A stretch of 64,000 bases of DNA, from NCBI RefSeq assembly GCF_944391105.1, contig NZ_CALXSK010000012.1:11414-75413 (forward strand), in the 5' to 3' direction. Positions 3 to 26,717 of this stretch are shown here, piece by piece. The notes below the pieces were generated by a model that was not told where the DNA came from, made no database searches, and worked only from the letters and a program-made list of their open reading frames with translations. Source of the stretch: an uncultured Victivallis sp. GTDB lineage: Bacteria > Verrucomicrobiota > Lentisphaeria > Victivallales > Victivallaceae. Position numbers and translations under genes: made by a program. Within the stretch, counting starts at the first letter, position 1. Every line of letters begins with the position of its first letter.

Positions 3-2411
3 CGCAAGGCGGAAGAAGCGCTCAAGGCGACCGAGATCGCCGGATTTGAAACGAATCTTCTGCTGCTGCGCGACGTCCTCGGCATGGCGCCGTTCCGCGA
101 GGGGCGGGCCGGGACCTGGCTGCTGAAGGAATATGTCTATTCTGCGCCGACGTTTGAAATTCTCTCCCCTGGAACGCAGACCACGGTGCAGGATTATCCC
201 GGCCGTCTCGGTTACTGGGCGGTCGGCGTTCCGCCGTCGGGGCCGATGGATGCGTACAGTTTCCGGCTGGCCAACCGGATCGTCGGGAACGCGCCGGAGG
301 CTCCGGGGCTGGAGATGACGCTTTCGGGCGCCTCGCTCCGTTTCAACACGGATGCGCTCTTCGCTCTGACCGGCGGAGAGTTTCCGGCGACCCTGAACGG
401 AACGGAGATTCCCCGGAATACACCGGTCTCTGCGAAGAGGGGCGATGTGCTCAAAGTCGGCACGACCCGCTGCGGGCAGCGCTGTTATTTCGCCGTTGCC
501 GGCGGAATCGACGTGCCGGAGTACCTCGGCAGCCGTTCGACGTTTACGCTCGGCCGGTTCGGCGGACACGGGGGGAGGGCGCTCGCCGCGGGCGACGTGC
601 TCCATATCGGCAACTGGAAGGTTTCCGAACCGCTGTCTCCGGCGGCAGCTGCCGTTCCGTCCATCGGGAACAGCTGGAAGATCGCCGTTCTTTACGGGCC
701 GCACGGCGCGCCCGACTACTTCACGGATGAAGACATCGAAGAGTTCTTCCGGGCGGAATGGGAGGTTCATTACAACTCCTCGCGCACCGGCGTCCGGCTG
801 GTCGGCCCCCGGCCGAAGTGGGCGCGTCCGGACGGCGGAGAGGCCGGACTGCATCCGTCCAATCTGCATGACAACGCCTACGCCGTCGGAACGATCGACT
901 TCACGGGCGACATGCCGGTGATTCTCGGCAAGGACGGGCCGAGCCTCGGCGGGTTCGTCTGTCCGGCGACGATCATCACGGCGGATCTCTGGAAAGTCGG
1001 GCAGCTCCGCAGCGGCGACAAGGTGAAGTTCGTCCCCGTCACTCCGGCGCAGGCCGCTGAACGTCGCGAGGCGCTCGAAGCGATTCTGGAGCACCCGGAA
1101 AAGGCGGATCATCCGGTCGCGGAACCTGTCGGCACGGTTCCCGGGTCGCCGGTTCTTGCGGAGTTTCATCGTGAGGACGCCATGTCGCACATCGTCTGCC
1201 GCCAGGACGGAGACGCGAATTTCCTGCTGGAGTTCGGGCCGCCGGTCATCGATTTGCGACTCCGCTTCACGGCGCACGCGTGGATGCTGAAACTCGAAGA
1301 GATGCACCTTCCGGCGATTCTCGACATCACGCCGGGAATCCGTTCGATTCAGATTCATTTCGATCCGGCGAAGATGACGCAGGAGGAACTTCTGAAGTTG
1401 ATCGCCGCTCTGGCGGAGAAACTCAAAACGGAGACGATCCGCTCGGTTCCGACCCGCACGGTCTATCTGCCGCTGAGCTGGGACGACCCGGCGACACGTC
1501 TCGCGATTCAGAAGTACGTCAGCACGGTTCGTCCGGACGCCCCCTGGTGCTGCCCGAACAACATCGAGTTCATCCGCCGGATCAACGGGCTCGACTCCGT
1601 CGAGGAGGTCGCAAAGATCGTGTTCGACGCGAATTACATCGTAATGGGTCTCGGAGACGTCTATCTCGGTGCGCCGGTGGCAACGCCGCTGGATCCGCGC
1701 CGCCGTCTGGTCACGACCAAGTACAACCCCGCCCGGACCTGGACGCCCGAAAACGCCGTCGGCATCGGCGGCGCGTACATGTGCGTTTACGGGATGGAGG
1801 GGCCCGGAGGCTACCAGTTCGTCGGACGGACGGTTCAGATGTGGAACCGCTTCAACGTCACACCGGAATTCGAGGAGGGCAAGCCTTATCTGCTCCGATT
1901 CTTCGACCAGGTCCGGTTCTTCCCGGTCGAGGCGGATGAACTGCTGAAAATCCGGCGCGACTTCATCGCGGGGAAATATCATATCCGCATGGAAGAGAGC
2001 GTGTTCGACATTCAGGAATATGAGAAGTTCCTCGAGGAGAACGCCGCTTCCATCGAGGCTTTCGAGACAAAGCGGAAACAGGCTTTTGAAGAGGAGAAGG
2101 CGCGCTGGATCGCCAACGGTCAGCTCACTTTCGAGAGCCATACGGTCGAAAGCGCCGCGCCCGCGGAGGAGGCCGAGTTGAAACCCGGTGAGAGCGGGGT
2201 TTACTCGCCGGTTGCCGGCAGTCTCTGGAAGCTGAACATAACCGAACCCGGCAAACGAGTGCGCGCAGGAGAGATTCTCGCAGTACTCGAGAGCATGAAA
2301 ACCGAAATTCCGGTAGCCGCGGAATCCGACTGTGAAATCGTCCGGATCTTCTGTGCCGCCGGAAACGAGGTCAAGAGCGGACAGTGTCTGTTCGCAGTGA
2401 AGACGAATTGA
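3..2411 (+). CDS. uca: Urea/guanidine carboxylase (biotin-dependent), 5' end outside the window
   Basis: Frame is open from base 3 (RKAEEALKATEIAGFETN, tail of the biotin carboxylase domain). Carboxyltransferase motifs PPSGPMD, GGHGGRAL, HPSNLHDNAY and GPGGYQFVGRT; C-terminal biotinyl domain LESMKTE; upstream of atzF. Confidence 0.93.
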   Translation, partial: RKAEEALKATEIAGFETNLLLLRDVLGMAPFREGRAGTWLLKEYVYSAPTFEILSPGTQTTVQDYPGRLGYWAVGVPPSGPMDAYSFRLANRIVGNAPEAPGLEMTLSGASLRFNTDALFALTGGEFPATLNGTEIPRNTPVSAKRGDVLKVGTTRCGQRCYFAVAGGIDVPEYLGSRSTFTLGRFGGHGGRALAAGDVLHIGNWKVSEPLSPAAAAVPSIGNSWKIAVLYGPHGAPDYFTDEDIEEFFRAEWEVHYNSSRTGVRLVGPRPKWARPDGGEAGLHPSNLHDNAYAVGTIDFTGDMPVILGKDGPSLGGFVCPATIITADLWKVGQLRSGDKVKFVPVTPAQAAERREALEAILEHPEKADHPVAEPVGTVPGSPVLAEFHREDAMSHIVCRQDGDANFLLEFGPPVIDLRLRFTAHAWMLKLEEMHLPAILDITPGIRSIQIHFDPAKMTQEELLKLIAALAEKLKTETIRSVPTRTVYLPLSWDDPATRLAIQKYVSTVRPDAPWCCPNNIEFIRRINGLDSVEEVAKIVFDANYIVMGLGDVYLGAPVATPLDPRRRLVTTKYNPARTWTPENAVGIGGAYMCVYGMEGPGGYQFVGRTVQMWNRFNVTPEFEEGKPYLLRFFDQVRFFPVEADELLKIRRDFIAGKYHIRMEESVFDIQEYEKFLEENAASIEAFETKRKQAFEEEKARWIANGQLTFESHTVESAAPAEEAELKPGESGVYSPVAGSLWKLNITEPGKRVRAGEILAVLESMKTEIPVAAESDCEIVRIFCAAGNEVKSGQCLFAVKTN

Positions 2412-2417
2412 ACCTCG

Positions 2418-2462
2418 TCCGCTCCGCGTTGCCACGCCGGCCGACGCGGAACGCGGAGCGGA
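2418..2462 (+). repeat. 13-bp perfect inverted repeat (hairpin) between uca and atzF
   Basis: tccgctccgcgtt (2418-2430) and aacgcggagcgga (2450-2462), 19-nt loop, no U-tract. Confidence 0.7.
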
Positions 2463-2485
2463 AAGAGGGAAAGGAGAGAGACACG

Positions 2486-4240
2486 ATGAGAAGTTGCGAA
2501 TTGTCGATTGCCGCACTCAGGCGGGCTTACCGGAGCGGTTCAAAGACCCCGCGCAGCGTTCTTACAGAACTGCTCGACGCATGTGCCGCCGCTCCGGACG
2601 GGATCTGGATTTCCCTGATCGGCCGGGGGCAGCTGGAGGGCTGGATCGCCAGACTTGAGGCATCTTCACCGGAGGAGCTTCCGCTCTACGGGATTCCATT
2701 TGCCGTGAAGGACAATATCGATGTGGCAGGATTGCCGACGACGGCGGGGTGTCCGGATTACCGTTATCGGCCGGAACGTTCCGCACGGGTGGTGGAACTC
2801 CTGATCGAAGCCGGAGCCGTTCCGCTCGGCAAGACGAACATGGATCAGTTCGCCACCGGTCTGGTCGGCGTCCGTTCTCCCTACGGGGCGGCGCCGAACC
2901 GTCTGGCGCCGGGATACGTCTCCGGCGGATCGAGCAGCGGATCGGCCGCGGCGCTGGCGTATGATCTGTGCAGTTTTTCTCTGGGAACCGATACGGCGGG
3001 GTCGGGCCGGGTTCCGGCGGCGTTCAATGAACTCGTCGGGGTGAAGCCGAGCCGGGGAGTTCTGAGCTGCCGCGGCGTGGTGCCGGCCTGCCGCTCGCTC
3101 GACTGCGTTTCGATCTTCGCCCGGAATCTCGAAGATGCCGGAATCCTGCTGGAAACGACCGCACGCTTCGACCCGGAGGATGCCTACAGCCGAATTCTGC
3201 CGGAACGCGATCCGCTGCCGCGCCACTGGAAATTCGGCGTTCCGCGGGAGGAGGATCTCGTGTTCTTCGGCCGGGAGGAGTACCGGGAGGCGTTTCGTCG
3301 CGCGGTACGGCGGATGCAGGATGCGGGGGGCGAAAAAGTGGAGATCGATTTCACCCCGTTTCTGACGGCGGCTCGGCTGCTCTACGAAGGCCCGTGGGTG
3401 TTTGAACGTTACGCGGCGGTCGGGGAATTCATTGAAAAGCATCCGGATTCGGTGCTGCCGGTGATCCGGTCGATCATCACGCCGGAGCAGACGCCGCATC
3501 CGTCGGAGGTGTTCCAGGCGATGTACCGTCTGCAGGAGTGCAGGGCGGCGGCGGACGCGCAGTTTGCGGCGGTGGATCTGATCCTCACGCCGACCGCCGG
3601 AACCATCTACCGGATCAACGAGGTCAAAGCCGATCCGATCCGGCTCAACAGCAATCTCGGATACTACACCAACTATATGAACCTGCTGGACTGTTCGGCG
3701 CTGGCCGTTCCGGCGGATCGCGCCGGAGATCTTCCATTCGGTATCACGCTGGTGGGGAAAGCGTTCGATGATTACAAACTTCTGGAAGCGGCCCGCCGTT
3801 TCCGGAGCGCGGGGCGGTTTCCGATCGCGGTCTGCGGCGCGCATCTCGCCGGAATGCCGCTGCACCCGGAGCTTGAGGCGCTCGGCGCGCGCTTTCTCGG
3901 CAGCGCGAAAACCGCTCCATGCTATCGGATGTACGAGTTGGAGGAGGGAGGCGCCCGCCCGGCTCTGCTGCGAACCGGCAAAGGGGGCGTGTCCTGCTAT
4001 GTGGAAATCTACGAGCTTGAAGCGGAGTCCTTCGCCGGATTCGTGGCAGGAATCCGTCCTCCGCTCGGGCTCGGCACTCTGGAGCTGGCGGATGGACGGC
4101 GGGTGCCGGGATTCATCGGGGAGGCGGTCATCGCGGAATATGCGCCGGACATCTCCGACGTCGCCGACTGGCGTGTCCGGGTGAAAGAACGGAAACGAAA
4201 ATCACATCGAGACTCCTCTCATGACAACACTCTATCGTAA
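2486..4240 (+). CDS. atzF: Allophanate hydrolase
   Basis: Amidase signature GIPFAVKDNID, GGSSSGS and LGTDTAGSGRVPA; C-terminal IAVCGAHL domain; AAGGAG RBS before ATG 2486. Confidence 0.93.
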   Translation: MRSCELSIAALRRAYRSGSKTPRSVLTELLDACAAAPDGIWISLIGRGQLEGWIARLEASSPEELPLYGIPFAVKDNIDVAGLPTTAGCPDYRYRPERSARVVELLIEAGAVPLGKTNMDQFATGLVGVRSPYGAAPNRLAPGYVSGGSSSGSAAALAYDLCSFSLGTDTAGSGRVPAAFNELVGVKPSRGVLSCRGVVPACRSLDCVSIFARNLEDAGILLETTARFDPEDAYSRILPERDPLPRHWKFGVPREEDLVFFGREEYREAFRRAVRRMQDAGGEKVEIDFTPFLTAARLLYEGPWVFERYAAVGEFIEKHPDSVLPVIRSIITPEQTPHPSEVFQAMYRLQECRAAADAQFAAVDLILTPTAGTIYRINEVKADPIRLNSNLGYYTNYMNLLDCSALAVPADRAGDLPFGITLVGKAFDDYKLLEAARRFRSAGRFPIAVCGAHLAGMPLHPELEALGARFLGSAKTAPCYRMYELEEGGARPALLRTGKGGVSCYVEIYELEAESFAGFVAGIRPPLGLGTLELADGRRVPGFIGEAVIAEYAPDISDVADWRVRVKERKRKSHRDSSHDNTLS

Positions 4241-5054
4241 CATTCGAACCCGCGAAGAACTTGACGCGGCTTACGACAATACACGCGCCGTCGCCGACTG
4301 TGCGCGGATTCTCGCCGGCTTCGAGGAGCGCAGCCGTCTCATCGCGGAACAGTACCCGGAGGAGCTGAATTTGCGCTTCGGATCGCGGGAGCGGCAGCGG
4401 ATTGATTTTTTCCGTGCCGGTTCTCCCGGCGCGCCGCTTCTGGTGTTCATCCACGGCGGCTACTGGCAGATGCGTCGCAAGGAGACCTTCCGGTTTCTGG
4501 CCGCGGGAGCGCTTCATCACGGAATTTCAGTGGCGCTGCCGGGGTATACGCTGGCGCCGGAACAGAATCTGGCCGGAATCGTTATGGAGATTCGCGATGC
4601 GCTGCGCTGGCTGCGGGAACACGCCGACGCTCTTGGATTCGACCGTTCCCGGATCGTCGTCGCCGGCTGGTCGGCGGGCGGACATCTCGCGGCCATGGCG
4701 GCCGACGAACCGGGCGTAACCGGGGTCCTTGCGATCAGCGGAATCTTCGATCTGGAGCCGATCCGTCTCTGCTATCTGAACGATAAACTTCAGCTGAAAC
4801 CGGAAGAGGTTGATTCCCTGAGTCCGCTTCGACTTCCCCTGTCGAAGAAAACACTGTTCGCGGTCTGCGGCTCGGACGAGCTGCCGGAACTGCAGCGCCA
4901 GAGCTGGGATTTCGCCCGGCATCGGGCCGCGGCGAAACTTCCCGGAGGCGCGTTCACGCTGGCCGGGCGCAACCACTTCACGATTCTTGAGGAGCTTGAG
5001 ACTCCCGGCGGAGTGATCACGACTCTGCTGCGGATGCTGCTTCCCTCGCTCTGA
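4221..5054 (+). CDS. Alpha/beta hydrolase (arylformamidase/kynurenine formamidase-like, HSL fold)
   Basis: FIHGGYW oxyanion motif and GWSAGGHL nucleophile elbow; overlaps the atzF end by 20 nt. Confidence 0.85.
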   Translation: MTTLYRNIRTREELDAAYDNTRAVADCARILAGFEERSRLIAEQYPEELNLRFGSRERQRIDFFRAGSPGAPLLVFIHGGYWQMRRKETFRFLAAGALHHGISVALPGYTLAPEQNLAGIVMEIRDALRWLREHADALGFDRSRIVVAGWSAGGHLAAMAADEPGVTGVLAISGIFDLEPIRLCYLNDKLQLKPEEVDSLSPLRLPLSKKTLFAVCGSDELPELQRQSWDFARHRAAAKLPGGAFTLAGRNHFTILEELETPGGVITTLLRMLLPSL

Positions 5055-5113
5055 CCGTTTCTCCTCCCGCAATGTACGAGATAAGCCTTTGTGGCTGTCC
5101 GGCTTGCGGGAGG

Positions 5114-5153
5114 ACAATTTTGTTAAACGAAGAGTTTTCTTTCACAATTTTGT
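5114..5153. promoter_or_regulatory. Two ACAATTTTGT palindromic boxes, 30-bp period: candidate enhancer (UAS) for a sigma54 activator
   Basis: Identical 10-mers at 5114-5123 and 5144-5153; same core and period as the boxes at 26630-26673. Confidence 0.65.
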
Positions 5154-5244
5154 CGCACGATTCGTTCTGAATCTGCGTTGAAACCGGAACCCCATCGCCG
5201 TTTTTTCCGGGAAAATTACGATTTTTCATCCTTTTTCCTCAAGT

Positions 5245-5260
5245 TGGCATTCTTTCTGCT
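5245..5260 (+). promoter_or_regulatory. Candidate sigma54 -24/-12 promoter of the secretin pair
   Basis: TGGCATTCTTTCTGCT, GG-N10-GC spacing. Shares AAGTTGGCA and TCTGCT with the glnA promoter. An overlapping extended -10 (TGCTATAAC) is an alternative reading. Confidence 0.6.
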
Positions 5261-5330
5261 ATAACACTGGTATCCGCGGCGTCCGATTCCGGGCGCCATT
5301 GGGTCAACCCGTAAACCAGGAGGTAGCCGA

Positions 5331-6752
5331 ATGAAATGCATCAACCCATGGAAGCTCGCGGCCCTGTTGTGCACGCTGCCCGCGCTGCTCTGCGCGGAAG
5401 AGGGCAATCAGCGGACCATCGTATTCAACGAGGATCGCAATCAGCACTACATGACCACCAAAGTCTACGAACTCAAAAACGTCCGGGCTCACGACCTGAT
5501 GCCGTTCGTACGCGGAGCGGTCAAACGATTCGACAGCCAGTCACGGGTCCAGAGCGTCGATTACGCCAGCGGCGGGAAGCAGTTTCTCGTCGTCTCCACC
5601 GGGAGCACGTTTCTCCCCTGGGTCGATGAAATGATCGCCACACTCGATTATCCATCCCCGAAAGTCGACGAATCCGGGGCGCGCATCGAGGGTGACGGCA
5701 TCAGCCGCTGGGTCTATGCGCCGGTTCATCGCGGCAGCGAAACGATGTACAAGGCGCTCGAACAGGTGTTCACCTCCGCCGGAGGGGAGGGGGCGTCTTT
5801 CTACGATGCACCGAGCAATCTGTTCTATTTCAAGAGTTCGAAATCCCAGGGGGAAGCGTATCTCTCGCTGTTGAAGACGCTCGATCGTCCGGTTCCGCAG
5901 CTTGAGGTGAAGTTCGATGTCTACGTCGTAAGTGACAACGACTTCCGCGAACTCGGGCTCGATTATCTCTCGTGGAAGAACGGACCCGGAGCGCAGCTGC
6001 TTTCGACCGGATTCAACTTCGCGGACCTCGATGCGGATTTCGATTCGCTTGGACCGGAGGCGTTTGAAAGCATTCTCGGTTTCCTGCCGAATTCCGTGAA
6101 CGGCGTCGGCGGCATTCTGGTTGCTCCGAACATCGATGCGACGTTTCTGCGGATGCTCGCCCAGAAGGGGAAGGCGTGGACCGCATCGTCCGGATCGCTT
6201 ACGCTGATCAACAGCTTCGATCCGGCGGCGAACGACACCGGGGAAGGGGTGTTCCGACTGGCATTTGCCCCGGAATTCCAGAACATCGTGAAGGACGAGA
6301 ATCAGACCATTGCGATCGGCGCACTGGCGGAATCGAGCTTTGAGTTCGAGTTTTACGCTCCGTCCATCAACTTCACCGCTGATCCATCGGAAGGGAAACT
6401 CACGCTCATGAGCAACTGGAGTCTGACGATCAACTCCCTGGCGGAAGTCGACAACGTCGGAAACGCCTCGATCGAAAGCAACCGCTTTTCCGGAAGTCTC
6501 ACACTCGACACCGGCGTGGAGAAACTCGTCGGCGCATTCGACAAGCATGTGATGGTCGAACAGTATATCGGCATGCCGTTCCTCGGAAGCATTCCGGTGC
6601 TGAAGTATCTGTTCGGTTCGGAAAGCAAGGTCGACAGCAAACTCAAGGTCTTCGTCACAATGACCGCCAAGCCGGTTGAGACGGAGAATCTTCCGGCCCC
6701 CGCCGCCGGAAAGGTGATCGACACATTGACCGCCATGAACAAGGCTGAATAA
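5331..6752 (+). CDS. Secretin-family outer-membrane protein, paralogue 1
   Basis: Signal peptide; N3-like repeat YELKNVRAHDL; secretin start LDRPVPQLEVKFDVYVV; C-terminal GMPFLGSIPVLKYLFG; AGGAGG RBS. Confidence 0.8.
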   Translation: MKCINPWKLAALLCTLPALLCAEEGNQRTIVFNEDRNQHYMTTKVYELKNVRAHDLMPFVRGAVKRFDSQSRVQSVDYASGGKQFLVVSTGSTFLPWVDEMIATLDYPSPKVDESGARIEGDGISRWVYAPVHRGSETMYKALEQVFTSAGGEGASFYDAPSNLFYFKSSKSQGEAYLSLLKTLDRPVPQLEVKFDVYVVSDNDFRELGLDYLSWKNGPGAQLLSTGFNFADLDADFDSLGPEAFESILGFLPNSVNGVGGILVAPNIDATFLRMLAQKGKAWTASSGSLTLINSFDPAANDTGEGVFRLAFAPEFQNIVKDENQTIAIGALAESSFEFEFYAPSINFTADPSEGKLTLMSNWSLTINSLAEVDNVGNASIESNRFSGSLTLDTGVEKLVGAFDKHVMVEQYIGMPFLGSIPVLKYLFGSESKVDSKLKVFVTMTAKPVETENLPAPAAGKVIDTLTAMNKAE

Positions 6753-6769
6753 GGAAAGGAGTAATTCAA

Positions 6770-8395
6770 ATGGTTTTCAATCCGAAACTTACATCGGGTG
6801 TTCTCGCCGCGTTTCTCGTTTCGGGGAAACTCTGTGCGGGAACCGTGGATATCCCGACTCCACCGGCGCTTCCGACCCAGGTTCAGCCGCAGCTGAACGT
6901 GTCGATCGACAAGTCGACCGACGAAATCACGTTCATCAATACGAACAACGATCCGTATGTCTATACGAAAGTGTATAAACTCAAGCATGCAGATCCCTAC
7001 GAGATCCGGCCGTATCTGATGTCGGCCATCCGGTCCCGGCGGATCGACACGAACGAGACGAAAGTAGAAGCGATCAAATATGTCGACGGCACCGGAATGG
7101 TGATCGTCTCGGCGGAACAGTACCGCTTTGAAAAACTCGACAACGGAATGACCATCGACCAGGTCGTCGAGATGCTGGATCGACCCGATCTCTCCGCACA
7201 GGCCGGACGCCGCTTCTTCGTCTACTATGCGAAATATTTCGATGCGACGACGCTGGCGAAACTGATTGAACAGGTCGGAATCATGCACGCCGACGATGCC
7301 GTCGAACTCGACGGAGTGGACACTGTTCGACCGGACAACGGCATGAACGCACTGCTGTTCTTCTGTACGCCGATTTCTCAGAAGAACATCGAAGCTCTGC
7401 TCGCGCAGTACGATACGCCGCTCTCGGAAGCGCTGTTCACCTATACGATCTATGAGATCGACAGCGAGAACGACGGCAATCTCGGAGTCGATTTCCAGGC
7501 GTGGAAGAACGGTCCCGGCGCTGATCTCTTCGCAGCGGGAGCAACCTATCTGAACGGATGGGATCCGCTGATCGGAACGATCGGCAACGCAACGGAAATG
7601 GTCAAGGATGCCCATGTGAACTACATCAACTTCAATCCGAAGTGGAACGCGAAGTATCTGGACTTTCTCGTCAGCAAAAGCAAGGCGAAAGTGCTGACCA
7701 GCGGAACGCTGAATGTCTGGAACAAGGCGGTGGGCACGGTCGAGAGCGTGACCCGTTTCCCCGTCATCGGTGATGGAGAGACGGAGATTGCGGAAACCGC
7801 AAACGACACATCCGAAATCACCATTTCGATTCCGGGTCAGAGCGAACCTTTGACGTTGACCACGAACAAACCCGGCGAAACCACCGTCACGACCGTGAAA
7901 GAGAGCCGGCTGCGCAAAACCAATAACGCGGAATTCGGCTTCCGGATGGAACTTCTGCCCGAAGTTTACGGTGAGTCGACAATCGTCCGGGTTGCGATGG
8001 AGAACACGAACCTGCTCGGATTCCACAGCGACGGGACTCCGCGCACCAGCCGAACCGAACTGGAGACCACGCTGCAGGTCAACAACAAGGGCAGCGTCTT
8101 CTACATCGGCGGGTTGGAGAAGTCCGATCTGGTCCGAAGCGTGAGCAAGGTTCCGTTTCTCGGGGATATTCCGGGACTCGGGTGGCTCTTTTCGGGAGAG
8201 AGCGAAACGGTTAAAAAGAGCCGGATCGTGGCGGTCCTGACCGTCAACCCGGGAACACCCACAACCCGGATTCCCGGAGAAATCGAAACGCTCTCCGGAC
8301 AGACGAAGCGGAAAATCGAGGAGTTTGGTCTTAAATCCCTCGATGAAAACGAGTATGGATTTGATCAGATCGGTCTTGATCCGGATCGGCGTTAA
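6770..8395 (+). CDS. Secretin-family outer-membrane protein, paralogue 2
   Basis: Signal peptide; YKLKHADPYEI repeat; YDTPLSEALFTYTIYEI; C-terminal KVPFLGDIPGLGWLF secretin motif; AAGGAG RBS. Confidence 0.85.
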   Translation: MVFNPKLTSGVLAAFLVSGKLCAGTVDIPTPPALPTQVQPQLNVSIDKSTDEITFINTNNDPYVYTKVYKLKHADPYEIRPYLMSAIRSRRIDTNETKVEAIKYVDGTGMVIVSAEQYRFEKLDNGMTIDQVVEMLDRPDLSAQAGRRFFVYYAKYFDATTLAKLIEQVGIMHADDAVELDGVDTVRPDNGMNALLFFCTPISQKNIEALLAQYDTPLSEALFTYTIYEIDSENDGNLGVDFQAWKNGPGADLFAAGATYLNGWDPLIGTIGNATEMVKDAHVNYINFNPKWNAKYLDFLVSKSKAKVLTSGTLNVWNKAVGTVESVTRFPVIGDGETEIAETANDTSEITISIPGQSEPLTLTTNKPGETTVTTVKESRLRKTNNAEFGFRMELLPEVYGESTIVRVAMENTNLLGFHSDGTPRTSRTELETTLQVNNKGSVFYIGGLEKSDLVRSVSKVPFLGDIPGLGWLFSGESETVKKSRIVAVLTVNPGTPTTRIPGEIETLSGQTKRKIEEFGLKSLDENEYGFDQIGLDPDRR

Positions 8396-8406
8396 AAAAA
8401 CAAAGC

Positions 8407-8443
8407 AAACTTCCCGGGGAGAGTCTTCTCCGGGAAGTTTTTT
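8407..8443 (+). terminator. Intrinsic terminator after the secretin pair, possibly bidirectional
   Basis: aaacttcccg...cgggaagttt stem with inner ggaga/tctcc pairing, followed by a T-run; convergent gene downstream. Confidence 0.8.
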
Positions 8444-8985
8444 CAGCTTCTTCTGCGGTTCGCGGCAAAACGAAGCCGCTGGATCCGCCGTTCCCGAAGT
8501 CGGAGTCGGACGGCGTAGACAAACAATCCGATGCCGAGAGCCATCCCGGCAAGAACCGCGACTCCACGAACCCAATAACGCGGGGGAATACCGCGGTCAA
8601 TGACCGCCTCCAGAGGTGACGTCGGATCGACATAGCAGTTGATCCGCTCCTTCGCGGGATATTGCCGAAGAAGCGGCTCGAGCAGCTGCGTTTTCCGGCG
8701 AAAGTCCTCTGAAAAGAATCCGTAACGGGTTGATCCGAAGACATTTCCTTCATATTCATATCGATAGTCGATCCGGAAAACACCCTCTCCGGTTCCCGGC
8801 AGAATGTCGATCCGGCTCGAAATCACCGTCGCAGGAACGACATCCCAGCTCCAGGCGCGGATCGCGTTCCGGCATGGTGCCCAGACGGTTTCCTTTCCCA
8901 GAAAAAGCGCAAAGACAAACAAAATCATGGCGAACGCGGTCAGCATTCGAAATCGATCACGACTTGTATTTTGATTGAGTTCCAT
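8443..8985 (-). CDS. DUF3592-like membrane protein
   Basis: Two hydrophobic segments flanking W..VPATVISS, YRYEYEG..FGS and CYVDP..P.EAV, the typical DUF3592 pattern. Confidence 0.7.
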   Translation of the reverse strand: MELNQNTSRDRFRMLTAFAMILFVFALFLGKETVWAPCRNAIRAWSWDVVPATVISSRIDILPGTGEGVFRIDYRYEYEGNVFGSTRYGFFSEDFRRKTQLLEPLLRQYPAKERINCYVDPTSPLEAVIDRGIPPRYWVRGVAVLAGMALGIGLFVYAVRLRLRERRIQRLRFAANRRRS

Positions 8986-9095
8986 ACGTTTACTATACCT
9001 CGTCAGATAAAAAAAGGCAAACGTCTTTGACTCGGCTTGCATCTTCCGGAAAACGGAGTACTGTATGGCGTAACAACCAATGCGGGGGATTTTTC

Positions 9096-10121
9096 ATGGA
9101 AAAACGGGCGATTTCGCTGGATCAGGTTCTGACCGACTCCTGGAAACGAATGGTGGGGCTGCTGTTCAAGCCGTTTGATTTCAAAAAATGGCTGATCCTC
9201 GGTTTCTGTGCATGGATGACAATCCTCATCTATGATCTGGCGAGTATTCAGCAGAGAATTCTCGAACCGGTGTTTCAGAATCTGGAGCAATCCGAATCGT
9301 TTAACCAGACGGTGCACAATATCTTCAAGGGAACGGAGGGAACCTTGTGGAGCCGGCTGCTGCAGGAACTCGAACCGTATACCGGAATCATCTGCCTGAT
9401 TGCGGCCCTCTACATCGGCTATCTGATTCTCTGTCTGGTTGTTTACTGGGTGCGTTGCCGATTTGAGTTTGTGCTCCTTGCCAATCTGCTTCGCGGGACG
9501 CAGGAAGTCAGGAATCCCTGGCGGGAATACCGGAAAATCGGAAATTCCTATTTTATCGGCAGTTTTCTGGTGAATTGTCTCGTATTCCTCTACTATATGG
9601 TGATTCTGGCCATCCTCATGCCCATGCTCATTGCCTACCTGACGGAACTGGCCGCCGGCGAGGTGTCTCTGCCGGGCCCCGGTATCTGGATCTGCTTGGG
9701 GATTTTGCTTGTGTCCGCAATCATTCTCGGCTACTACATGTGGTTCTTCTATCAGCTGCTGATTCCGATCATGTACCGGGACAAGCTCACGTTCAGACAG
9801 GGGCTCCGGGTGATGAACCGGCTTATCTGGAAACACTTCGGGATCTGCTTCCTGTATTATCTGGTCATCATGGTTGTCTGGTTCGGGTTTCTGATCGCAG
9901 TGCTGGCAGCTTCGGCGTTGACCTGCTGCATCTTCCTGCTGCTGTTGACCAGTGTGCCTTATATCCGGGCAGTCATTGTACTGCCGTTCTGGGTCTTTTT
10001 CCGCCTGCTCGGGTTCAGACTCCTGGAGGAGCTTGATCCGCGCGATCCGGAACCGGAATCCGGCAGCGGACCGTTGCCAGAACCGGAAAGTGTTCCGAAA
10101 GAAATTCCGGCCGAACCGTAA
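9096..10121 (+). CDS. Conserved multi-pass membrane protein of unknown function
   Basis: About 7 hydrophobic helices; Pro/Glu-rich C-terminal tail; start ATG 9096 chosen after GGGGG. Confidence 0.65.
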   Translation: MEKRAISLDQVLTDSWKRMVGLLFKPFDFKKWLILGFCAWMTILIYDLASIQQRILEPVFQNLEQSESFNQTVHNIFKGTEGTLWSRLLQELEPYTGIICLIAALYIGYLILCLVVYWVRCRFEFVLLANLLRGTQEVRNPWREYRKIGNSYFIGSFLVNCLVFLYYMVILAILMPMLIAYLTELAAGEVSLPGPGIWICLGILLVSAIILGYYMWFFYQLLIPIMYRDKLTFRQGLRVMNRLIWKHFGICFLYYLVIMVVWFGFLIAVLAASALTCCIFLLLLTSVPYIRAVIVLPFWVFFRLLGFRLLEELDPRDPEPESGSGPLPEPESVPKEIPAEP

Positions 10122-10130
10122 GCAAATCCC

Positions 10131-11066
10131 TCAACTGTTCCGCTGGCGTGGATCAAGCGCATCGCGCAGTGCATCCCCCAGGACATTCAGAGCGAGGACA
10201 AGTACGAACATGAAGCCGGTTGCCGCGACAATCTCCCACCAGATGCCGCGCCAGAGACGTTCCTGTCCATCAGAGATCATCACGCCCCAGCTGGGTGCGC
10301 CCTGTGCACCGAAGCCGAGATAGCTTACGATCACCTCCAGCATGATCGCTCCGGCGAACGAGAGTGTGAAGTAGATGATGACCAGATGAAATACATTCGG
10401 CAGAATATGGCGCAGCACAATAACCGGGCCGCTTACACCCGCGACTCGCGCTGCCGCAACGAACGGCATGTTTCGGAGTTTCATCGCCTCAGCCCGAACC
10501 ACCCGGCAGAGCGTGACCCATCCCGTGATGCCGATTGCGAGGTAAATTGCGAGCATCCCCGGCTCGGCCCGGAGGAGGCTCCCGATACCTTCGGCTATCA
10601 GCATCAGGCTGTCCGGCAGAAAGTTGCGCGAGACCAGCAACGCGAAGGCCAGAATGAACAACAAAGTCGGCATCGAAGCGAACGTACTGTACAGCCAGAC
10701 GACGATGTCATCGAATTTTCCGCCGAAAAATCCCGCGACGGCACCGAGCAACACGCCGATGACAGCGGAAATCAGACTTGCAATGACGCCGACCTTCACC
10801 GCAGTGGCGCTTCCCGCGATCGCCCGCAACAGCACGTCCCGCCCCTGATAATCCGTTCCGAGCCAGTGACCGGGGGAGGGGGGGGCGTACCGTGCCGCAT
10901 CATCCACAACGTTATAAATCGGAATGATTTTATGGTGTTCGCACCAGACCGTGTAAAGTTCGGTTCCGACTGCGGCAAGCACATACAGCAGAACAATCCC
11001 CAGCGAAATCATCGCAAGTTTACTGCGGCAGAGTCGCTTCCATGCAGTTGTTCCGGGACGGCTCAT
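10131..11066 (-). CDS. Peptide/nickel ABC transporter permease (OppC/DppC family)
   Basis: HWLGTDYQGRDVL, EAA loop (FVAAARVAG), HILPN and PSWGVMI motifs. Confidence 0.9.
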   Translation of the reverse strand: MSRPGTTAWKRLCRSKLAMISLGIVLLYVLAAVGTELYTVWCEHHKIIPIYNVVDDAARYAPPSPGHWLGTDYQGRDVLLRAIAGSATAVKVGVIASLISAVIGVLLGAVAGFFGGKFDDIVVWLYSTFASMPTLLFILAFALLVSRNFLPDSLMLIAEGIGSLLRAEPGMLAIYLAIGITGWVTLCRVVRAEAMKLRNMPFVAAARVAGVSGPVIVLRHILPNVFHLVIIYFTLSFAGAIMLEVIVSYLGFGAQGAPSWGVMISDGQERLWRGIWWEIVAATGFMFVLVLALNVLGDALRDALDPRQRNS

Positions 11067-12937
11067 GCTCCGGCATTCTCCCGGTTCCGGCGAACGATCG
11101 AAATCTGGAGCAACGCGATATCGGCGGGGGTCACGCCATCGATCCGTCCCGCCTGGGCGAGGGTGGTCGGGCGTACTTTGACCAGTTTGGAACGTGCTTC
11201 GTTGCTGAGCCCCTTCACCGTTTCATAGTCGAAATCAGCCGGCATTTCCAATGCTTCCAGTTTCCGCATCCGATTGATCTCCGCAACTTCGCGCTGCAGA
11301 TACCCGTCGTAACGAGCCTCCACCATGAGTTCACGCCAGATGCGCCGCCCGAGACGCCCCTCCGGAAACTCCGGCAGCAGGCCGGCGGGGAAGGGGAGGT
11401 GATCGTGCGCCTCCTCTCTGGAAACGGTGTCCGGAAGTTCCTTCAGATGAACGAGCAGCGGTTTCCCCGCTGATTTCGTATTGCGGAAACAGGTGACGAC
11501 GCGTTCCAGCTCCGCCCGGTAGGTTGCAAATTCGCGGTATTTCTCCTCGGGCAGAAGTCCGAGTTCATGTGCCTGTTCCGAGAGCCGCAGGTCGGCATTG
11601 TCCTGCCGCAGGGTCAAGCGATATTCGGCGCGGCTTGTGAAGAGTCGATAGGGTTCGATGATCTCCTTGGTACAGAGGTCATCGATCATGACCCCGATGT
11701 AGCTTTTTTCCCGTCCGAATTCGACAGTGCTCTTTCCGGCGGCCGTGCGTGCGGCATTGAGCCCGGCGACCAGCCCCTGACCGGCAGCCTCCTCATAGCC
11801 GCTCGTCCCGTTGATCTGGCCGGCGGTGAAGAGGTTGGGCCAGGATTTGACCCGCAGTGAACGCTCCAGCTGATCGGGATAAAGGAAATCATATTCGATC
11901 GCATAGGCGTAGCGTGAAATCACAGCCCGTTCCATCCCCGGGATCGAGTGAATCATCTGTCGCTGAACCTCGACCGGGAGACTCGTCGAGATGCCGTTGA
12001 TGTAGTATTCCCTGGTCTGGGCTCCCTCGGGTTCAAGATAAAGCAGATGGACCGGGTGTTGCGGGAAACGCACGACCTTATCTTCGAACGACGGACAATA
12101 GCGTGTACCAATTCCTTTGATAACACCTTGATACATGGGAGAATATTGAATATTTTCCCGAACGATCTCCGCCGTTTTCTCCGTCGAATAAACCATGTGA
12201 CAAGGCAGGTCGTGTTTCCGGGCGCGGGGAAGGGGGGGACGCAATGCCTCGCTCCAGTTGCAGAACTCCTCCTCCTGCCCTGCGGCTTCCTGGATGCGCA
12301 TGGCGGAGAAATCGATGGTTTTGGCAAGGATTCGCGGAGGCGTGCCGGTTTTGAGTCGTCCAATGCGGAGATTGAGCTGTTCCGCAAGGGCGCAGGAGAG
12401 CGCGTTCGACGGGAAATCGCCCGCTCGCCCGCCGGGAAAATTCCGCATTCCGTAATGGAGTTTGCCGTTCAGAAAAGTTCCGGTAGTGACGACGACGGCG
12501 CGGCAGCGGATCTGGTCTCCGAACTGATTCACAACGCCGGCAATCCCGCCGTTTTCCACCAGAAATCCGGTGACTTCCGCCTGAAGAAGGTCGATTCCCG
12601 GTGTCTCTTCGAGCAACAGTTTCATCCCGCGCTGATACACGACCTTGTCACATTGCGACCGAGGGGACCATACGGCCGGTCCCTTGGTCTGATTCAACAT
12701 CCGGAATTGGATGGATGCGGCATCGGTCACCATGCCCTGGGCTCCACCCATGGCATCAATTTCGCGCACGACCTGTCCTTTGGCGATTCCGCCGACTGCG
12801 GGATTGCAGCTCATCTGGGCGATGTGATCCAGATTCAGCGTAATGAGCATCACCGATGCGCCGACCCGGGCCGCGGCGAAAGCGGCTTCGCACCCGGCAT
12901 GACCGGCGCCGATTACAATAACATCATACTCTTTCAT
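11063..12937 (-). CDS. mnmG: tRNA uridine-5-carboxymethylaminomethyl(34) synthesis enzyme MnmG (GidA)
   Basis: YDVIVIGAGHAGCEAA, MSCNPAVGGIAKG, RYCPSFEDK, AGQINGTSGYEEAAGQG, PYRLFTSRAEYRL. Confidence 0.97.
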   Translation of the reverse strand: MKEYDVIVIGAGHAGCEAAFAAARVGASVMLITLNLDHIAQMSCNPAVGGIAKGQVVREIDAMGGAQGMVTDAASIQFRMLNQTKGPAVWSPRSQCDKVVYQRGMKLLLEETPGIDLLQAEVTGFLVENGGIAGVVNQFGDQIRCRAVVVTTGTFLNGKLHYGMRNFPGGRAGDFPSNALSCALAEQLNLRIGRLKTGTPPRILAKTIDFSAMRIQEAAGQEEEFCNWSEALRPPLPRARKHDLPCHMVYSTEKTAEIVRENIQYSPMYQGVIKGIGTRYCPSFEDKVVRFPQHPVHLLYLEPEGAQTREYYINGISTSLPVEVQRQMIHSIPGMERAVISRYAYAIEYDFLYPDQLERSLRVKSWPNLFTAGQINGTSGYEEAAGQGLVAGLNAARTAAGKSTVEFGREKSYIGVMIDDLCTKEIIEPYRLFTSRAEYRLTLRQDNADLRLSEQAHELGLLPEEKYREFATYRAELERVVTCFRNTKSAGKPLLVHLKELPDTVSREEAHDHLPFPAGLLPEFPEGRLGRRIWRELMVEARYDGYLQREVAEINRMRKLEALEMPADFDYETVKGLSNEARSKLVKVRPTTLAQAGRIDGVTPADIALLQISIVRRNRENAGA

Positions 12938-13101
12938 GTTTTCGCTTTCGTAGAACAACCATTTTTATAAGATACCTTCAAAGGTTGACATTATCAATCT
13001 ATATGGAGAGGATTTTTCCGGAAAATCCGGCGACTTTTCTCCGGACATCCCCTCCCCGGAAATCCTGGCTCGATACTTAACATAACGCACATTATGCGAC
13101 G

Positions 13102-13470
13102 TTATATATTGGCGCCGGAATCCCCCCTCTCGTCGAGAATCTTCTGCAAACGAACACGAAGCTCAGCATCATCGGCGGAATGCTGCAAGGCATCGCGGAT
13201 CAGATCGAGAAGATTTTGATGTTCGTTTTCTGCGGCGCGCTCTGCATCGATCGATAAAGCACGTTCCGAGGCACGTTTCCAATATCCGGGCATGTTTGGT
13301 TTCTCCTTGTTTTGAAGTTGACGATTGAGAATATCGGCGATTGCATCGGCAAGTGAAGAGCAAAAGTTTTCTCCCCATTCTTCCGAATCACTGAATTCTA
13401 TGCCGAAATGGATAGAATCCTGCAACTTGATCAGCCAGTTGCCTAACTTGTCATATAAAACGTAAACCAT
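13102..13470 (-). CDS. Hypothetical protein (122 aa) in a low-GC segment
   Basis: ORF with no recognised motif; ATG overlaps the stop of the upstream small ORF (TAATG). Confidence 0.5.
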   Translation of the reverse strand: MVYVLYDKLGNWLIKLQDSIHFGIEFSDSEEWGENFCSSLADAIADILNRQLQNKEKPNMPGYWKRASERALSIDAERAAENEHQNLLDLIRDALQHSADDAELRVRLQKILDERGDSGANI

Positions 13471-13622
13471 TACAACACCCCGACAGCGTCTTTATGGAAT
13501 TCAATTCCGCGCTTGAAAAGCAAACCGGAAGCTCGTTCGTAATCATCAATGGCGGCATAGTTCCGAAGCAAAGCCTTTTCCGCCGTGGTAAGTCTGCGGA
13601 ATCCATCGGCGATAATATCCAT
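13470..13622 (-). CDS. Small hypothetical ORF (50 aa), possibly the 3' remnant of a disrupted gene
   Basis: My translation: MDIIADGFRRLTTAEKALLRNYAAIDDYERASGLLFKRGIEFHKDAVGVL*. Frame stays open upstream to a TGA at 13698-13700. Not in the supplied ORF track. Confidence 0.4.
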   Translation of the reverse strand: MDIIADGFRRLTTAEKALLRNYAAIDDYERASGLLFKRGIEFHKDAVGVL

Positions 13623-14129
13623 GAACTTTTTTAACTCAGGCTGCGCCGCTCCCTCCGTAATGGCCTGATCAGAAAAACGATCCGCGGCCTGGTTCCGTCA
13701 ATAAAGTCCCCTGCCCCATCCGTTTTATTTTCCCGAAATCTGGAATGAACCGCAGGGAAAAAGAAAATATGCGGCGGGTTATACGCTTTCCTGATGCGGA
13801 TGAATTCGATATTCAGAAACGATGACAGAGAGAATAAGACAATAAAACTATCTTCGAGCGAAAGGAGAATACACCGGGAGGCCAAAACGAAATTGCAGTG
13901 GATCCGCCTCAAATATCGGATCGCTGCATCGAAAGACAACAAATGAGCAGCCGGAAGTAAGCAGAGCAATAAAACTCAAAAAAACACACGTTACCCCGAT
14001 GTTGCATTTCCTGCCGCAATCATGCACAGCAATTGCAACATTCCATCAACAATCATCGGGAAGGACTCCGGCCAACCACGACGCCAGCCAAAGCCCTCCC
14101 CTCCCCGATTTTCCGGTTGATGGCGGAAA

Positions 14130-14705
14130 TCACCAGTTCTCGGCAAGAACCTCGAAGTAAGCCTGCGGGTGAGCACAGGCCGGACAGACCGCCGGCGCTT
14201 CAAAGCCGACATGCAGATAACCGCAGTTCAGGCAGCGCCAGACAACCTCAGTCGATTTCTTGAAAACGGTGGAATTCTTCAGATTTTCCAGCAATCCACG
14301 ATAACGACGCTCATGCTGTTTTTCTGCGACACAGACGCGGTCCCACACCTCGGCAATTTCCGGAAACCCTTCCTTGCGGGCGACTTCCGCAAACGCCGGG
14401 TACATCGAACTCCACTCCTCGTACTCTCCGCCCGCGGCAGCAGTCAGGTTCGCGACCGTGTCCGAGATGACCCCGGCCGGGAAACTCGCGGTAATTTCAA
14501 GATCGCCGCCTTCAAGAAACTTGAAGAAACGTTTTGCATGCTCTTTTTCCTGATTTGCGGTCTCCTCGAAGATGTTCGCAATCTGAACATATCCCTCTTT
14601 GCGGGCGACGCCGGCAAAATAGGTGTAACGGTTGCGCGCCTGGGACTCCCCGGCGAAAGATTTCATGAGGTTCTTTTCGGTTTCGGTTCCCCGGATCGAT
14701 TTCAT
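14130..14705 (-). CDS. rbr: Rubrerythrin
   Basis: NLMKSFAGESQARNRY, EKEHAK and EKQHERRY di-iron motifs; C-terminal rubredoxin-like WRCLNCGY...CPAC. Confidence 0.95.
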   Translation of the reverse strand: MKSIRGTETEKNLMKSFAGESQARNRYTYFAGVARKEGYVQIANIFEETANQEKEHAKRFFKFLEGGDLEITASFPAGVISDTVANLTAAAGGEYEEWSSMYPAFAEVARKEGFPEIAEVWDRVCVAEKQHERRYRGLLENLKNSTVFKKSTEVVWRCLNCGYLHVGFEAPAVCPACAHPQAYFEVLAENW

Positions 14706-14878
14706 CTTTCTGTCCTCCATGTTTGCTTTGCAATTTTCCGCCGCGGTAAGACGGCGCTCCGACACCGCATTACATTAGCAGATTTCCCGGAAAAGTCAAG
14801 CAGAACCAACTCTCCCCTTGCATTCCGCCTCCACACATTTATATTATGAAGAAACCAATGATGAATCTGGGGGATACC

Positions 14879-16369: not shown

Positions 16370-16382
16370 TTACCTGTGTTGT

Positions 16383-26585: not shown

Positions 26586-26629
26586 GCTCTGTTATGAGCG
26601 GAGAACGGGCCTTTCTGTACCGCCATATC

Positions 26630-26673: not shown

Positions 26674-26717
26674 AACATTATCGGAAGAAACGGCCCCCTT
26701 TGTGCTCAAAACAAAGT

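Follow-up and report, generated by a model that had tools for sequence, protein, structure and literature searches.

An obligately paired secretin module of Victivallis and its relatives as a possible nutrient-regulated outer-membrane channel

Background

In the textbook view, secretins are gates for export, built as homo-oligomers and dependent on a machine in the inner membrane; members of the superfamily form 12-16-mer rings in the outer membrane. A genome of a Victivallis species (Lentisphaerota) carries two adjacent, diverged secretin genes, here called A and B, that lie apart from any secretion or pilus genes, which raises the question of what two secretins encoded side by side might do where no such machine is encoded with them. 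We addressed this question in a stretch of 64,000 nucleotides from this genome (the window) and in related genomes. The A-then-B arrangement occurs three times in the genome.

Organization of the window locus

Secretin A (5331..6752, + strand, 473 aa) and secretin B (6770..8395, + strand, 541 aa) are open reading frames exactly as given in the first-pass annotation, which had also described a two-gene operon closed by a terminator and N-terminal signal peptides ending in LCA; all of this was borne out. The spacer between the two genes (6753..6769, + strand) has only 17 nt and contains the ribosome site GGAAAGGAG, while the ribosome-binding site of A, AGGAGG (5318..5323, + strand), was read from the sequence 7 nt before the ATG. 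The N-termini of both translations are hydrophobic and have the LCA end. Downstream of B, an intrinsic terminator (8407..8445, + strand) consists of a 15-bp stem, a GUCU loop and a U-run. It was missed by a simple terminator scan and was revealed by folding of the spacer (-25.3 kcal/mol, z -3.7; 0 of 200 shuffles folded equally well), and an A-run upstream of the stem makes it usable from both strands.

Upstream of A, on the same strand, are genes for a urea-type carboxylase of 1200 aa (3-2411; its C-terminal 802 aa are in the window), an allophanate hydrolase (2384-4240) and an alpha/beta-hydrolase esterase (4221-5054). The array occupies positions 5109-16467 of the contig (C12, in its own numbering); its start, which precedes the window, encodes an ABC importer and three DUF1989 proteins. 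Besides these three genes, the neighbors within approximately 8 kb of the pair encode DUF3592, DUF7544, an ABC permease and MnmG. As previously noted, no ATPase, platform, pilin or pilotin gene is found within this distance, and neither are gspC, gspE, gspF or gspG-K; phage genes near the window pair were also not found.

A and B are predicted secretins without the N0 docking domain

The identification of both proteins as secretins, made before any profile search, was supported by the Pfam model PF00263, which A and B matched with 29.1 and 73.3 bits, respectively (gathering cut-off 27.5), A weakly and in its C-terminal half only. The members of the other two pairs in the genome also score above this cut-off. 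A and B are paralogues, with 23% identity over nearly the full length (BLASTP, E 2e-22). All four motifs that had been described as private to the two proteins were located where they had been reported, i.e., YMTTKVYELK in A and YVYTKVYKLK in B, LGLDYLSWKNGPGAQL and LGVDFQAWKNGPGADL (with the W encoded at 5973 and 7502), KGKAWTASSGSLTLIN and KSKAKVLTSGTLNVWN, and PFLGSIPVLKYLF and PFLGDIPGLGWLF. Both proteins contain the invariant WKNGPGA motif where the barrel domain begins.

AlphaFold2 models (pLDDT 75 for A and 68 for B, with low confidence in the lip/cap region, i.e., residues 214-271 of A and 250-289 and 339-379 of B) predict a secretin fold for both proteins. In A, a signal peptide (aa 1-22) would be followed by two N1/N3-type ring domains (aa 41-105 and 125-184), the secretin barrel (aa 190-448) and a C-terminal helix (aa 457-472); in B, the corresponding segments are the signal peptide (aa 1-23), ring domains (aa 64-136 and 148-214), barrel (aa 220-495) and helix (aa 503-517), and a conserved C-terminal motif, N-x-YGF-x-Q-x-x-LD, is located at aa 527-537. 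All four N-terminal domains of the two models are beta-alpha-beta-beta-alpha. Foldseek comparisons against GspD, InvG, PilQ and pIV chains reached E values of 5e-20 for A and 2.7e-17 for B; TM-scores were low (0.3-0.6), as the relative placement of the domains differs in the monomer models. None of the long barrel strands is missing from the A model, which also contains the conserved PFLG-IP-L-YLF element.

Neither protein reached the cut-off of the T2SS or the type IV pilus secretin model. Scores against TIGR02517 (GspD of type II secretion systems, T2SS) were 88.8 bits for B and 26.2 bits for A (cut-off 351.35), and those against TIGR02515 (PilQ of type IV pili) were 51.9 and 26.9 bits, respectively (cut-off 284). 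The proteins had initially been thought to lack both the N0 and the N1 domain; the first half of this statement stands, while the second does not, as N1-type domains are present and each protein has two ring domains. Matches to PF03958 in A and B were below threshold, and a Pfam profile search gave no match of A or B to an N0 family at E <= 1. N0 is absent from all three pairs of the genome, whereas the genome's canonical GspD (778 aa) matches the N0 model PF21305; the absence of N0 removes the usual docking surface. Overall, homology and structure models indicate that A and B are Sec-type exported proteins of predicted secretin fold, with two putative periplasmic ring domains and without the N0 docking domain.

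A and B are obligately paired across the order

Of 45 genomes sampled from the order to which Victivallis belongs, 39 contain the A-B pair, with 1 to 5 copies each; it was absent from the 106 other sampled genomes of the phylum. Among 88 A hits in the 39 genomes, B was located directly downstream of A in 87, and the reverse order, B then A, was never seen. Only two unpaired hits were obtained, both of them short fragments, such that neither gene was found complete without its partner. When 80 loci were selected via B alone, A was directly upstream wherever the contig permitted. As the B-profile homologue search returned only near-identical V. vadensis clusters, the diversity of B was taken from the related-loci search. 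An orthologous pair is encoded by Victivallis vadensis DSM 14823, a named strain for which a genome record exists.

The gap between the two genes has a median of 19 nt and ranges from -4 to 40 nt in 69 of 72 loci. Trees of A and B are congruent (r 0.96; 39 of 42 strongly supported B splits also appear in the A tree), and the pair duplicates as a unit. A and B thus form an obligately paired, anciently diverged module that is always arranged as A then B across this order, and the separate occurrence of the paralogues that would have refuted the first-pass proposal was not seen. The further proposal that the two proteins may form a hetero-oligomeric channel gains indirect support from the strict pairing and order, the tight gap, the unit duplication and the congruent trees.

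The module is not linked to secretion or pilus machinery

When neighboring genes were clustered in 23 and then in 80 loci, no family occurred in more than about one fourth of the loci; the most common families were DUF1559, ABC ATPases, FeoA/B and Pst. No T2SS, type IV pilus or Tad gene was a conserved neighbor in approximately 100 related loci, so that the pairs do not appear as routine members of such systems in relatives. Dedicated secretins exist elsewhere in the genome, for the T2SS (contig C6), for one Tad locus (C3) and in a pilM operon (C20), and the genome has a canonical gspD-E-F locus separate from the A-B pairs. The only pilM operon has two large secretins of its own; tpiA and secG lie between this operon and the nearest A-B pair, upstream of that pair and on the other strand. 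Machinery without a secretin in cis comprises a PilB-PilB-PilC cluster, whose contig (C7) encodes no secretin, and a secretin-less Tad locus.

The first-pass annotation had also suggested that the pair could work in trans with DUF1559 pseudopilins. Of 80 loci, 22 do have DUF1559 genes at most 10 kb away from the pair, in variable positions, but the genome contains approximately 119 such prepilin-like genes, or roughly one per 31 kb, and this proximity is therefore not an enrichment. A DUF1559 or pilus link was thus rejected as the main reading, since proximity was no higher than the background gene density.

Subfamilies of the module are located beside nutrient importers

Several subfamilies lie as a whole in operon-like arrays together with importer genes. 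In 12 loci the pair has feoA-feoB as its immediate neighbors, with two different gene orders, and all of these loci fell inside one B clade of 19 rows (support 100). In 7 loci pstS-C-A-B-phoU was directly downstream of the pair, and one more locus had pst 2.9 kb upstream; the 7 loci fall into two clades that the deepest split of the midpoint-rooted B tree separates. Amino-acid ABC transporter and Na:Ala symporter genes lie beside the pairs of another B clade, and in the genome studied here an APC permease gene begins 60 nt after the pair on contig C2. Adjacency to importer operons, a trait of nutrient-specific channels, is thus found in the feoAB-, pstSCAB-phoU- and amino-acid-transporter-linked subfamilies. 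About half of the loci have neighbors unrelated to transport (tpiA-secG, RRF, GT2 glycosyltransferases, PFK, regulators), and the pst and feo operons of the present genome adjoin no A-B pair. For the window copy, the link to the ABC-importer/carboxylase array consists of adjacency only, the pair having its own promoter, and adjacency to the urea cluster is kept only in the closest relatives of this pair.

As other outer-membrane entry routes, we considered TonB-dependent receptors and porins. The genome gave no match to PF00593, PF07396 or PF13609; this screen covered three families, and other porins may exist. TonB-dependent receptors were present in 0 of 45 genomes of the order as compared to 91 of 106 phylum genomes outside it, a complementarity with the A-B pair that represents a single clade-level event. 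Neither TonB-dependent receptors nor OprO/P porins were found in ten genomes that contain pairs linked to pst, feo or amino-acid transporter genes. ExbB, the energiser of the TonB system, is absent from the Lentisphaerae strains WC36 and zth2 (PMC11361711). Because no TonB-dependent receptors, OprO/P or Porin_4 porins are detectable by sequence in this lineage, outer-membrane channels formed by A-B would close a genuine gap.

The window copy has a predicted sigma54 promoter

A sigma54-type promoter, TGGCATTCTTTCTGCT (5245..5260, + strand; -24 GG, -12 GC), was predicted upstream of A by pattern match, and further upstream two ACAATTTTGT boxes (5114..5153, + strand; 5114-5123 and 5144-5153), 30 bp apart, are putative enhancers to which a sigma54 activator could bind. 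The 64-kb window contains 3 matches to the pattern TGGCAY-N5-YTGCW as compared to 0.13 expected by chance; besides the match upstream of A, these are the promoters of gltB and glnA. ACA[AT]4TGT occurs only 6 times in the window, and a second box pair, likewise 30 bp apart, is located between glnA and gltB (26632 and 26662). Within the clade of the window pair, 10 of 13 loci have the sigma54 motif upstream of A, and two of the 3 motif-negative loci are cut at or within 150 nt of the A start; the motif recurs in orthologues of the window pair with differing neighbors. The spaced -24/-12 promoter and the upstream boxes indicate that the A-B operon of the window is, by prediction, sigma54-dependent. 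An earlier suggestion that this pair serves the uptake of nitrogen compounds is supported, as a lead, by a promoter and boxes like those of glnA and gltB, by the importer/carboxylase array and by the importer-linked sister subfamilies, with uptake as its conjectural part.

Comparison with known systems

GspD of the T2SS (PulD, EpsD, XcpQ; TIGR02517; PDB 5wq8, 6i1y, 6hcg) belongs to the same superfamily and has the same fold as A and B. The alignment of B with EpsD/GspD starts at the N3-type domain and extends across the secretin domain, VPxLGDIPxLGxLF included, and a Sec signal peptide and N1/N3-type ring domains are found in GspD and in A-B alike. Unlike GspD, however, A and B have no N0 and only two ring domains, lack gspC-O neighbors, score far below the equivalog cut-off, and represent two different subunits that are always encoded together. 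In their small size, A and B resemble filamentous-phage pIV (PDB 7ofh) and other compact secretins; pIV was the only PDB sequence hit of A (E 7.8e-7) and gave the highest target-normalised TM-scores for the A and B models (0.60 and 0.58, respectively). Phage pIV has an N0 domain and is a homo-oligomer, and the A-B pair differs from it in being chromosomal, multi-copy and conserved order-wide, without phage genes nearby. An origin from phage pIV was rejected given the missing phage context and the conservation of the module across the order.

Nutrient-specific porins such as OprP/OprO, or PhoE with pst, are encoded with importers and share their starvation control. They resemble the A-B module in that a channel gene lies beside an importer operon, but this is a functional analogy only, as their fold is unrelated (a monomeric or trimeric barrel of 16-18 strands as compared to a predicted multimeric secretin). 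HxcQ of Pseudomonas aeruginosa is one protein within a complete phosphate-regulated Hxc T2SS that exports a phosphatase; like HxcQ, the pst-linked pairs may be secretins under nutrient-starvation control that are tied to phosphate acquisition, but they occur without T2SS machinery. The nearest published hint of a secretin with two paralogues that we found is mitochondrial GspD and GspDL of some protists, two diverged, co-occurring secretin C-domain paralogues that were read as a pore elaboration (PMC8134430). In contrast to A-B, these are eukaryotic, occur beside other retained T2SS parts and have no importer link, and a heteromer was not demonstrated.

Discussion

The reading that we favor, tentatively and at somewhat less than even confidence, is that A and B constitute an obligate two-subunit, machine-independent secretin that acts as an outer-membrane channel under nutrient regulation; both the mixed ring and the import role are inferred. 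A and B would co-assemble into one mixed outer-membrane ring, and with no inner-membrane platform to open this ring for a pilus or a folded protein, the ring would be a regulated channel. It may admit small nutrients to the periplasm for dedicated inner-membrane importers, with subfamilies specialised for, or co-regulated by, particular nutrients (i.e., the feoAB-, pstSCAB-phoU- and amino-acid-transporter-linked forms). The window copy would belong to a sigma54 subfamily that is switched on together with glnA and gltB under nitrogen limitation. As this copy ends an array of ABC-importer and urea(/guanidine)-carboxylase genes, its likeliest job would be outer-membrane entry of small nitrogen compounds. 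To our knowledge, every characterised secretin exports or passes a filament, such that small-solute import would be a new role, and a vestibule of secretin size would need gating or narrowing for it.

The only established role of secretins would instead be preserved if the pairs served in trans as outer-membrane gates of type IV filament machines whose genes lie elsewhere, candidates being the PilB-PilB-PilC cluster, the secretin-less Tad locus and a machine assembling the approximately 119 DUF1559 proteins. We consider this unlikely. The genome does have machinery without a cis secretin and very many prepilin-like genes, some of them near pairs, but that proximity does not exceed the gene-density expectation, no type IV filament gene is a conserved neighbor in approximately 100 loci, and the pilM operon is already provided with secretins. 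Moreover, A and B lack N0, the domain that contacts GspC, PilP or inner rings, and neither the 1 to 5 pairs per genome nor the subfamily-specific importer synteny fits one gate per machine. The linkage to feoAB, pst and amino-acid importers, along with the nitrogen-type promoter, would also be left unexplained if the pair exported a polymer or surface material, e.g., exopolysaccharide or slime. Secretin nozzles have been reported for cyanobacteria and myxobacteria, where PilQ/GspD-family secretins are slime nozzles required for slime secretion (PMC12475490), and one B clade has GT2 glycosyltransferases downstream and another a PMT_2 glycosyltransferase upstream. These are, however, a minority of loci, and polymer export appears very improbable.

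Two other alternatives dispense with a mixed ring. B alone could form the ring, with A as a diverged secretin-like accessory (helping assembly, forming a periplasmic ring or cap, or regulating the gate), as might be expected from the difference between their secretin HMM scores (29 bits for A, confined to the C-terminal half, and 73 for B). Accessory belts, caps or plugs do occur on known secretins (PMC10828601, PMC13392014). The complete barrel strands and PFLG-IP-L-YLF element of the A model, its match to whole secretin chains and the WKNGPGA motif common to both barrel starts argue against this role for A, which we regard as improbable. Alternatively, A and B could be two separate homo-oligomeric secretins that merely share an operon, in line with the PDB hits, as all solved secretins are homo-oligomeric. 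Independent pores would not need strict pairing, fixed order, tight coupling and congruent trees, however, and neither gene was found complete alone (the two unpaired hits being fragments), which makes this explanation quite improbable.

If the preferred reading of a two-subunit import channel is extended to the whole lineage, Victivallales may have swapped TonB-dependent receptors and classical specific porins for secretins that are hetero-oligomeric and independent of a machine, each pair building a mixed ring for import under starvation control, with paralogous pairs tied to the iron (feoAB), phosphate (pst), amino-acid and nitrogen (sigma54) regulons, the window copy being the nitrogen-limitation channel. 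We put this forward as a possibility that is somewhat less likely than not. The idea is directly testable, as V. vadensis DSM 14823 has an orthologous pair and the genes are small enough for expression in E. coli. In the literature that we searched, neither hetero-oligomeric secretins of bacteria nor secretins acting as nutrient channels were described. If the reading is true, A-B would be the first secretin made of two subunits and also the first with small-nutrient uptake as its normal role, which would extend the secretin family in two ways, to hetero-oligomers and to import, and would help explain how nutrients cross the outer membrane in gut and sediment Lentisphaerota that have no TonB-dependent receptors.

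Architecture of the two secretin genes

The two-gene layout described in the first-pass annotation was recovered: the first secretin gene (A, 5331-6752, 473 aa) and the second (B, 6770-8395, 541 aa) both lie on the plus strand, with an AGGAGG ribosome site 5' of A, a 17-nt A-B spacer carrying GGAAAGGAG ahead of B and, closing the unit as had been claimed, a terminator at 8407-8445 (15-bp hairpin plus U-run; -25.3 kcal/mol, z -3.7). A and B share 23% identity over an alignment spanning nearly their full length (E 2e-22), and every one of the motifs quoted earlier as shared was found in both proteins. The proposed secretin identity held in the HMM search, as both proteins passed the Pfam gathering score for PF00263 (Secretin), B clearly (73.3 bits) and A narrowly (29.1 bits). 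By sequence, A and B are thus part of the known secretin superfamily; their closest database proteins, from uncultured Victivallis and V. vadensis, are labeled "hypothetical" or "type II/III secretion system protein".

AlphaFold2 models built from 95 (A) and 70 (B) homologues reached pLDDT values of 75 and 68, respectively. Each protein shows a signal peptide followed by a pair of predicted ring-building domains of the beta-alpha-beta-beta-alpha type (residues 41-105 and 125-184 in A, 64-136 and 148-214 in B), then a secretin barrel with long strands (190-448 in A, 220-495 in B) and a helix at the C-terminus. For both A (E 5e-20) and B (E 2.7e-17), Foldseek matches lay among secretins of T2SS, T3SS, T4P and phages. 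By sequence, B can be aligned to EpsD/GspD of the T2SS from the N3-type domain onward, while the sole PDB sequence match of A was phage pIV; both scored far under the cut-offs of the GspD, PilQ, SctC and MshL equivalog models. In Pfam profile searches neither protein matched N0 families at E <= 1, and the canonical 778-aa GspD of the same genome did match the N0 family PF21305. The earlier suggestion that both N0 and N1 are missing was therefore correct for N0 and wrong for N1-type domains, of which each protein has two. The B family also has a conserved extreme C-terminus, N-x-YGF-x-Q-x-x-LD, beyond the C-terminal helix (8348-8380; B residues 527-537), with no equivalent in A; this tail might have a partner- or wall-binding role.

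Pairing of A and B in the order of Victivallis

Among 151 genomes surveyed across the phylum, A and B were present in 39, with 1-5 pairs apiece, and all of these fell within the 45 genomes of the order that holds Victivallis; none were found in the 106 genomes sampled outside it. A belongs to a small family: among 1.84 billion representatives, no more than 44 clusters (50% identity) reached E 1e-30. B was located directly 3' of A on the same strand for 87 of 88 A matches, the order B-then-A never occurred, and the exceptions to pairing were short fragments. Consistent with the co-occurrence of the paralogues, in 80 further loci retrieved by the B profile alone, among them loci from V. vadensis DSM 14823 and from strain zth2, whose genome is complete, A was directly 5' of B wherever the contig reaches. 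The median gap was 19 nt (-4 to 40 nt in 69 of 72 loci). Trees of A and B from the same 73 loci were almost identical (path-distance r 0.96; 39 of 42 strongly supported B-tree splits found again in the A tree), so each pair duplicated as a whole and diverged as one. Overall, A and B constitute a conserved, stand-alone two-gene secretin module without N0, and its pairing, gene order, gap and congruent trees are what would be predicted, from sequence, for an obligate two-subunit complex. A small conserved protein (140-160 aa) with no Pfam match adjoins the pair directly 3' of B in three loci (L088, L099 and L111) and directly 5' of A in another (L112).

The assembly containing the window (3.7 Mb, 95% complete; window at contig C12:11414-75413) has 11 secretin genes. 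Six of these form the three A-B pairs (the window pair on C12, C2:92239-95359 and C20:27428-30776); single secretins are encoded in a gspD-E-F locus on C6, within a Tad locus on C3 (537 aa) and on C1 (511 aa). The remaining two are tandem secretins of another kind (840 and 864 aa), on the minus strand at C20:15091-20233 (loci L119 and L120); in each, the N-terminal region is TPR/ARM-like and a Secretin domain is present, and a fusion of PilM and PilN (606 aa) lies 5' of them together with two unknown genes. Secretin doubling may be more widespread in this lineage.

Importers and a sigma54-type promoter beside the pairs

Inner-membrane importers recur directly adjacent to the pairs and on the same strand. 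feoA-feoB adjoined the pair in 12 loci, as A-B-feoA-feoB in 8 (some of these contigs stop short of feoB) and 5' of A in 4, while pstS-pstC-pstA-pstB-phoU began 72-252 nt past B in 7 loci, with pst 2.9 kb upstream of the pair in one additional locus. Other pairs adjoined two SBP_bac_3 binding proteins with an ABC ATPase and a Na:Ala symporter, or other ABC permease and ATPase genes; an APC amino-acid permease lies 60 nt 3' of the C2 pair. In the midpoint-rooted B tree, feo-linked pairs all fell inside one 19-row clade (support 100), amino-acid-ABC pairs formed a separate clade, and pst-linked pairs formed two clades, on either side of the deepest split. A-B thus comprises multi-copy subfamilies with conserved importer synteny. 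C20-type pairs adjoin tpiA-secG, and approximately half of the loci have non-transport neighbours (RRF, GT2 and PMT_2 glycosyltransferases, PFK, regulators); in the window's own genome, neither the single pst operon nor any of the three feoB genes adjoins a pair.

The window pair and its terminator lie, beyond a 277-nt spacer, at the end of a same-strand array whose preceding part (C12:5109-16467, plus strand, locus L121, running into window 3-5054) holds, in order, a NitT/TauT-type ABC importer (NMT1_2 binding protein, permease and ATPase), three paralogous DUF1989 genes, a 1200-aa urea-type carboxylase, allophanate hydrolase and an esterase. Carboxylase and DUF1989 clusters of this kind serve urea or guanidine degradation; the substrate here may be guanidine rather than urea. 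The spacer carries a predicted sigma54-type promoter (TGGCATTCTTTCTGCT, 5245-5260). Its pattern, TGGCAY-N5-YTGCW, matches 3 sites across the 64-kb window as compared to 0.13 expected; besides this one, they are the divergent gltB and glnA promoters. Two ACAATTTTGT boxes, starting at 5114 and 5144 and 30 bp apart, are located approximately 100-130 nt 5' of the A-B -24 element; the glnA-gltB spacer (26570-26733) likewise has two ACA[AT]4TGT boxes spaced exactly 30 bp (26632 and 26662), and among the six such boxes in the window those at 16747 and 26383 are unpaired. Within the clade of the window pair, the sigma54 motif was found 5' of A in 10 of 13 loci, where motif-negative L042 and L046 have little or no upstream DNA (contig cut at or <=150 nt from the A start) and the sole match in L037 is at +1 of the called ORF; it was absent upstream of pst-, C2- and C20-type pairs. 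As the motif is kept in species with quite different flanking genes, and adjacency to the urea cluster is limited to the closest relatives, sigma54 control appears to be a property of the subfamily, which carries, as judged from the motif, a nitrogen-type sigma54 promoter. The proposals of a hetero-oligomeric channel and of nitrogen uptake both gained comparative support, the first from pairing and the second from importer synteny and this promoter, with the nitrogen-cluster context confined to those relatives.

Possible functions of the pair

It seems unlikely that A-B acts in trans as the gate of a type IV filament machine. Contig C7, which has no secretin gene, encodes two PilB/GspE-like ATPases together with a PilC-like platform at C7:37363-41516 (minus strand). 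As previously noted, no ATPase, platform, pilin or pilotin gene was found within approximately 8 kb of the window pair, which is flanked by the carboxylase, allophanate hydrolase and esterase upstream and by DUF3592, DUF7544, ABC permease and MnmG genes downstream; clustering of neighbour genes across 23 and then 80 loci revealed no recurrent T2SS, T4P or Tad neighbour. The suggested link to DUF1559 pseudopilins was not upheld: of 80 loci, 22 had prepilin-like DUF1559 genes <=10 kb from the pair, in no fixed position, and this is not an enrichment given approximately 119 such ORFs in the genome, about one per 31 kb. One of them, at 55763-56467, has a prepilin-type N-terminus and lies in a minus-strand triad (54217-57548; LacI regulator, DUF1559 prepilin-like, GH42/DUF4832-like) with gene sizes (511, 234 and 369 aa) equal to those of an annotated copy at C2:85577-88926 (L013:577-3926).

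It is improbable that A is an accessory to a ring made of B, each protein having its own predicted barrel and ring-building domains, and similarly improbable, next to the near-constant pairing, that A and B form two separate homo-oligomers. Polymer export, for which glycosyltransferase neighbours could be cited, appears the most doubtful. We found no description in the literature of a hetero-oligomeric bacterial secretin or a secretin nutrient channel; the nearest published parallels are GspD and GspDL, which co-occur in mitochondrial T2SS relics (PMC8134430), and the secretins of which the slime nozzles of cyanobacteria and myxobacteria are made (PMC12475490).

Searches of the window's own genome for TonB-dependent receptor barrels, OprO/P porins and Porin_4 (the missing ALTERNATIVES) gave no match. 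TonB-dependent receptors were found in 0 of 45 genomes of the order as compared to 91 of the 106 sampled from the rest of the phylum, and ten genomes with pst-, feo- or amino-acid-linked pairs had neither these receptors nor OprO/P porins; the TonB-system energiser ExbB is absent in two Lentisphaerae isolates (PMC11361711). As a single clade-level contrast, with three families searched, this absence is only suggestive of a channel role for A-B. Overall, A and B probably co-assemble in one ring, and it is plausible, if tentative, that such a ring would let small nutrients enter through a channel regulated by starvation; the full picture, combining both proposals, is put forward more tentatively still.
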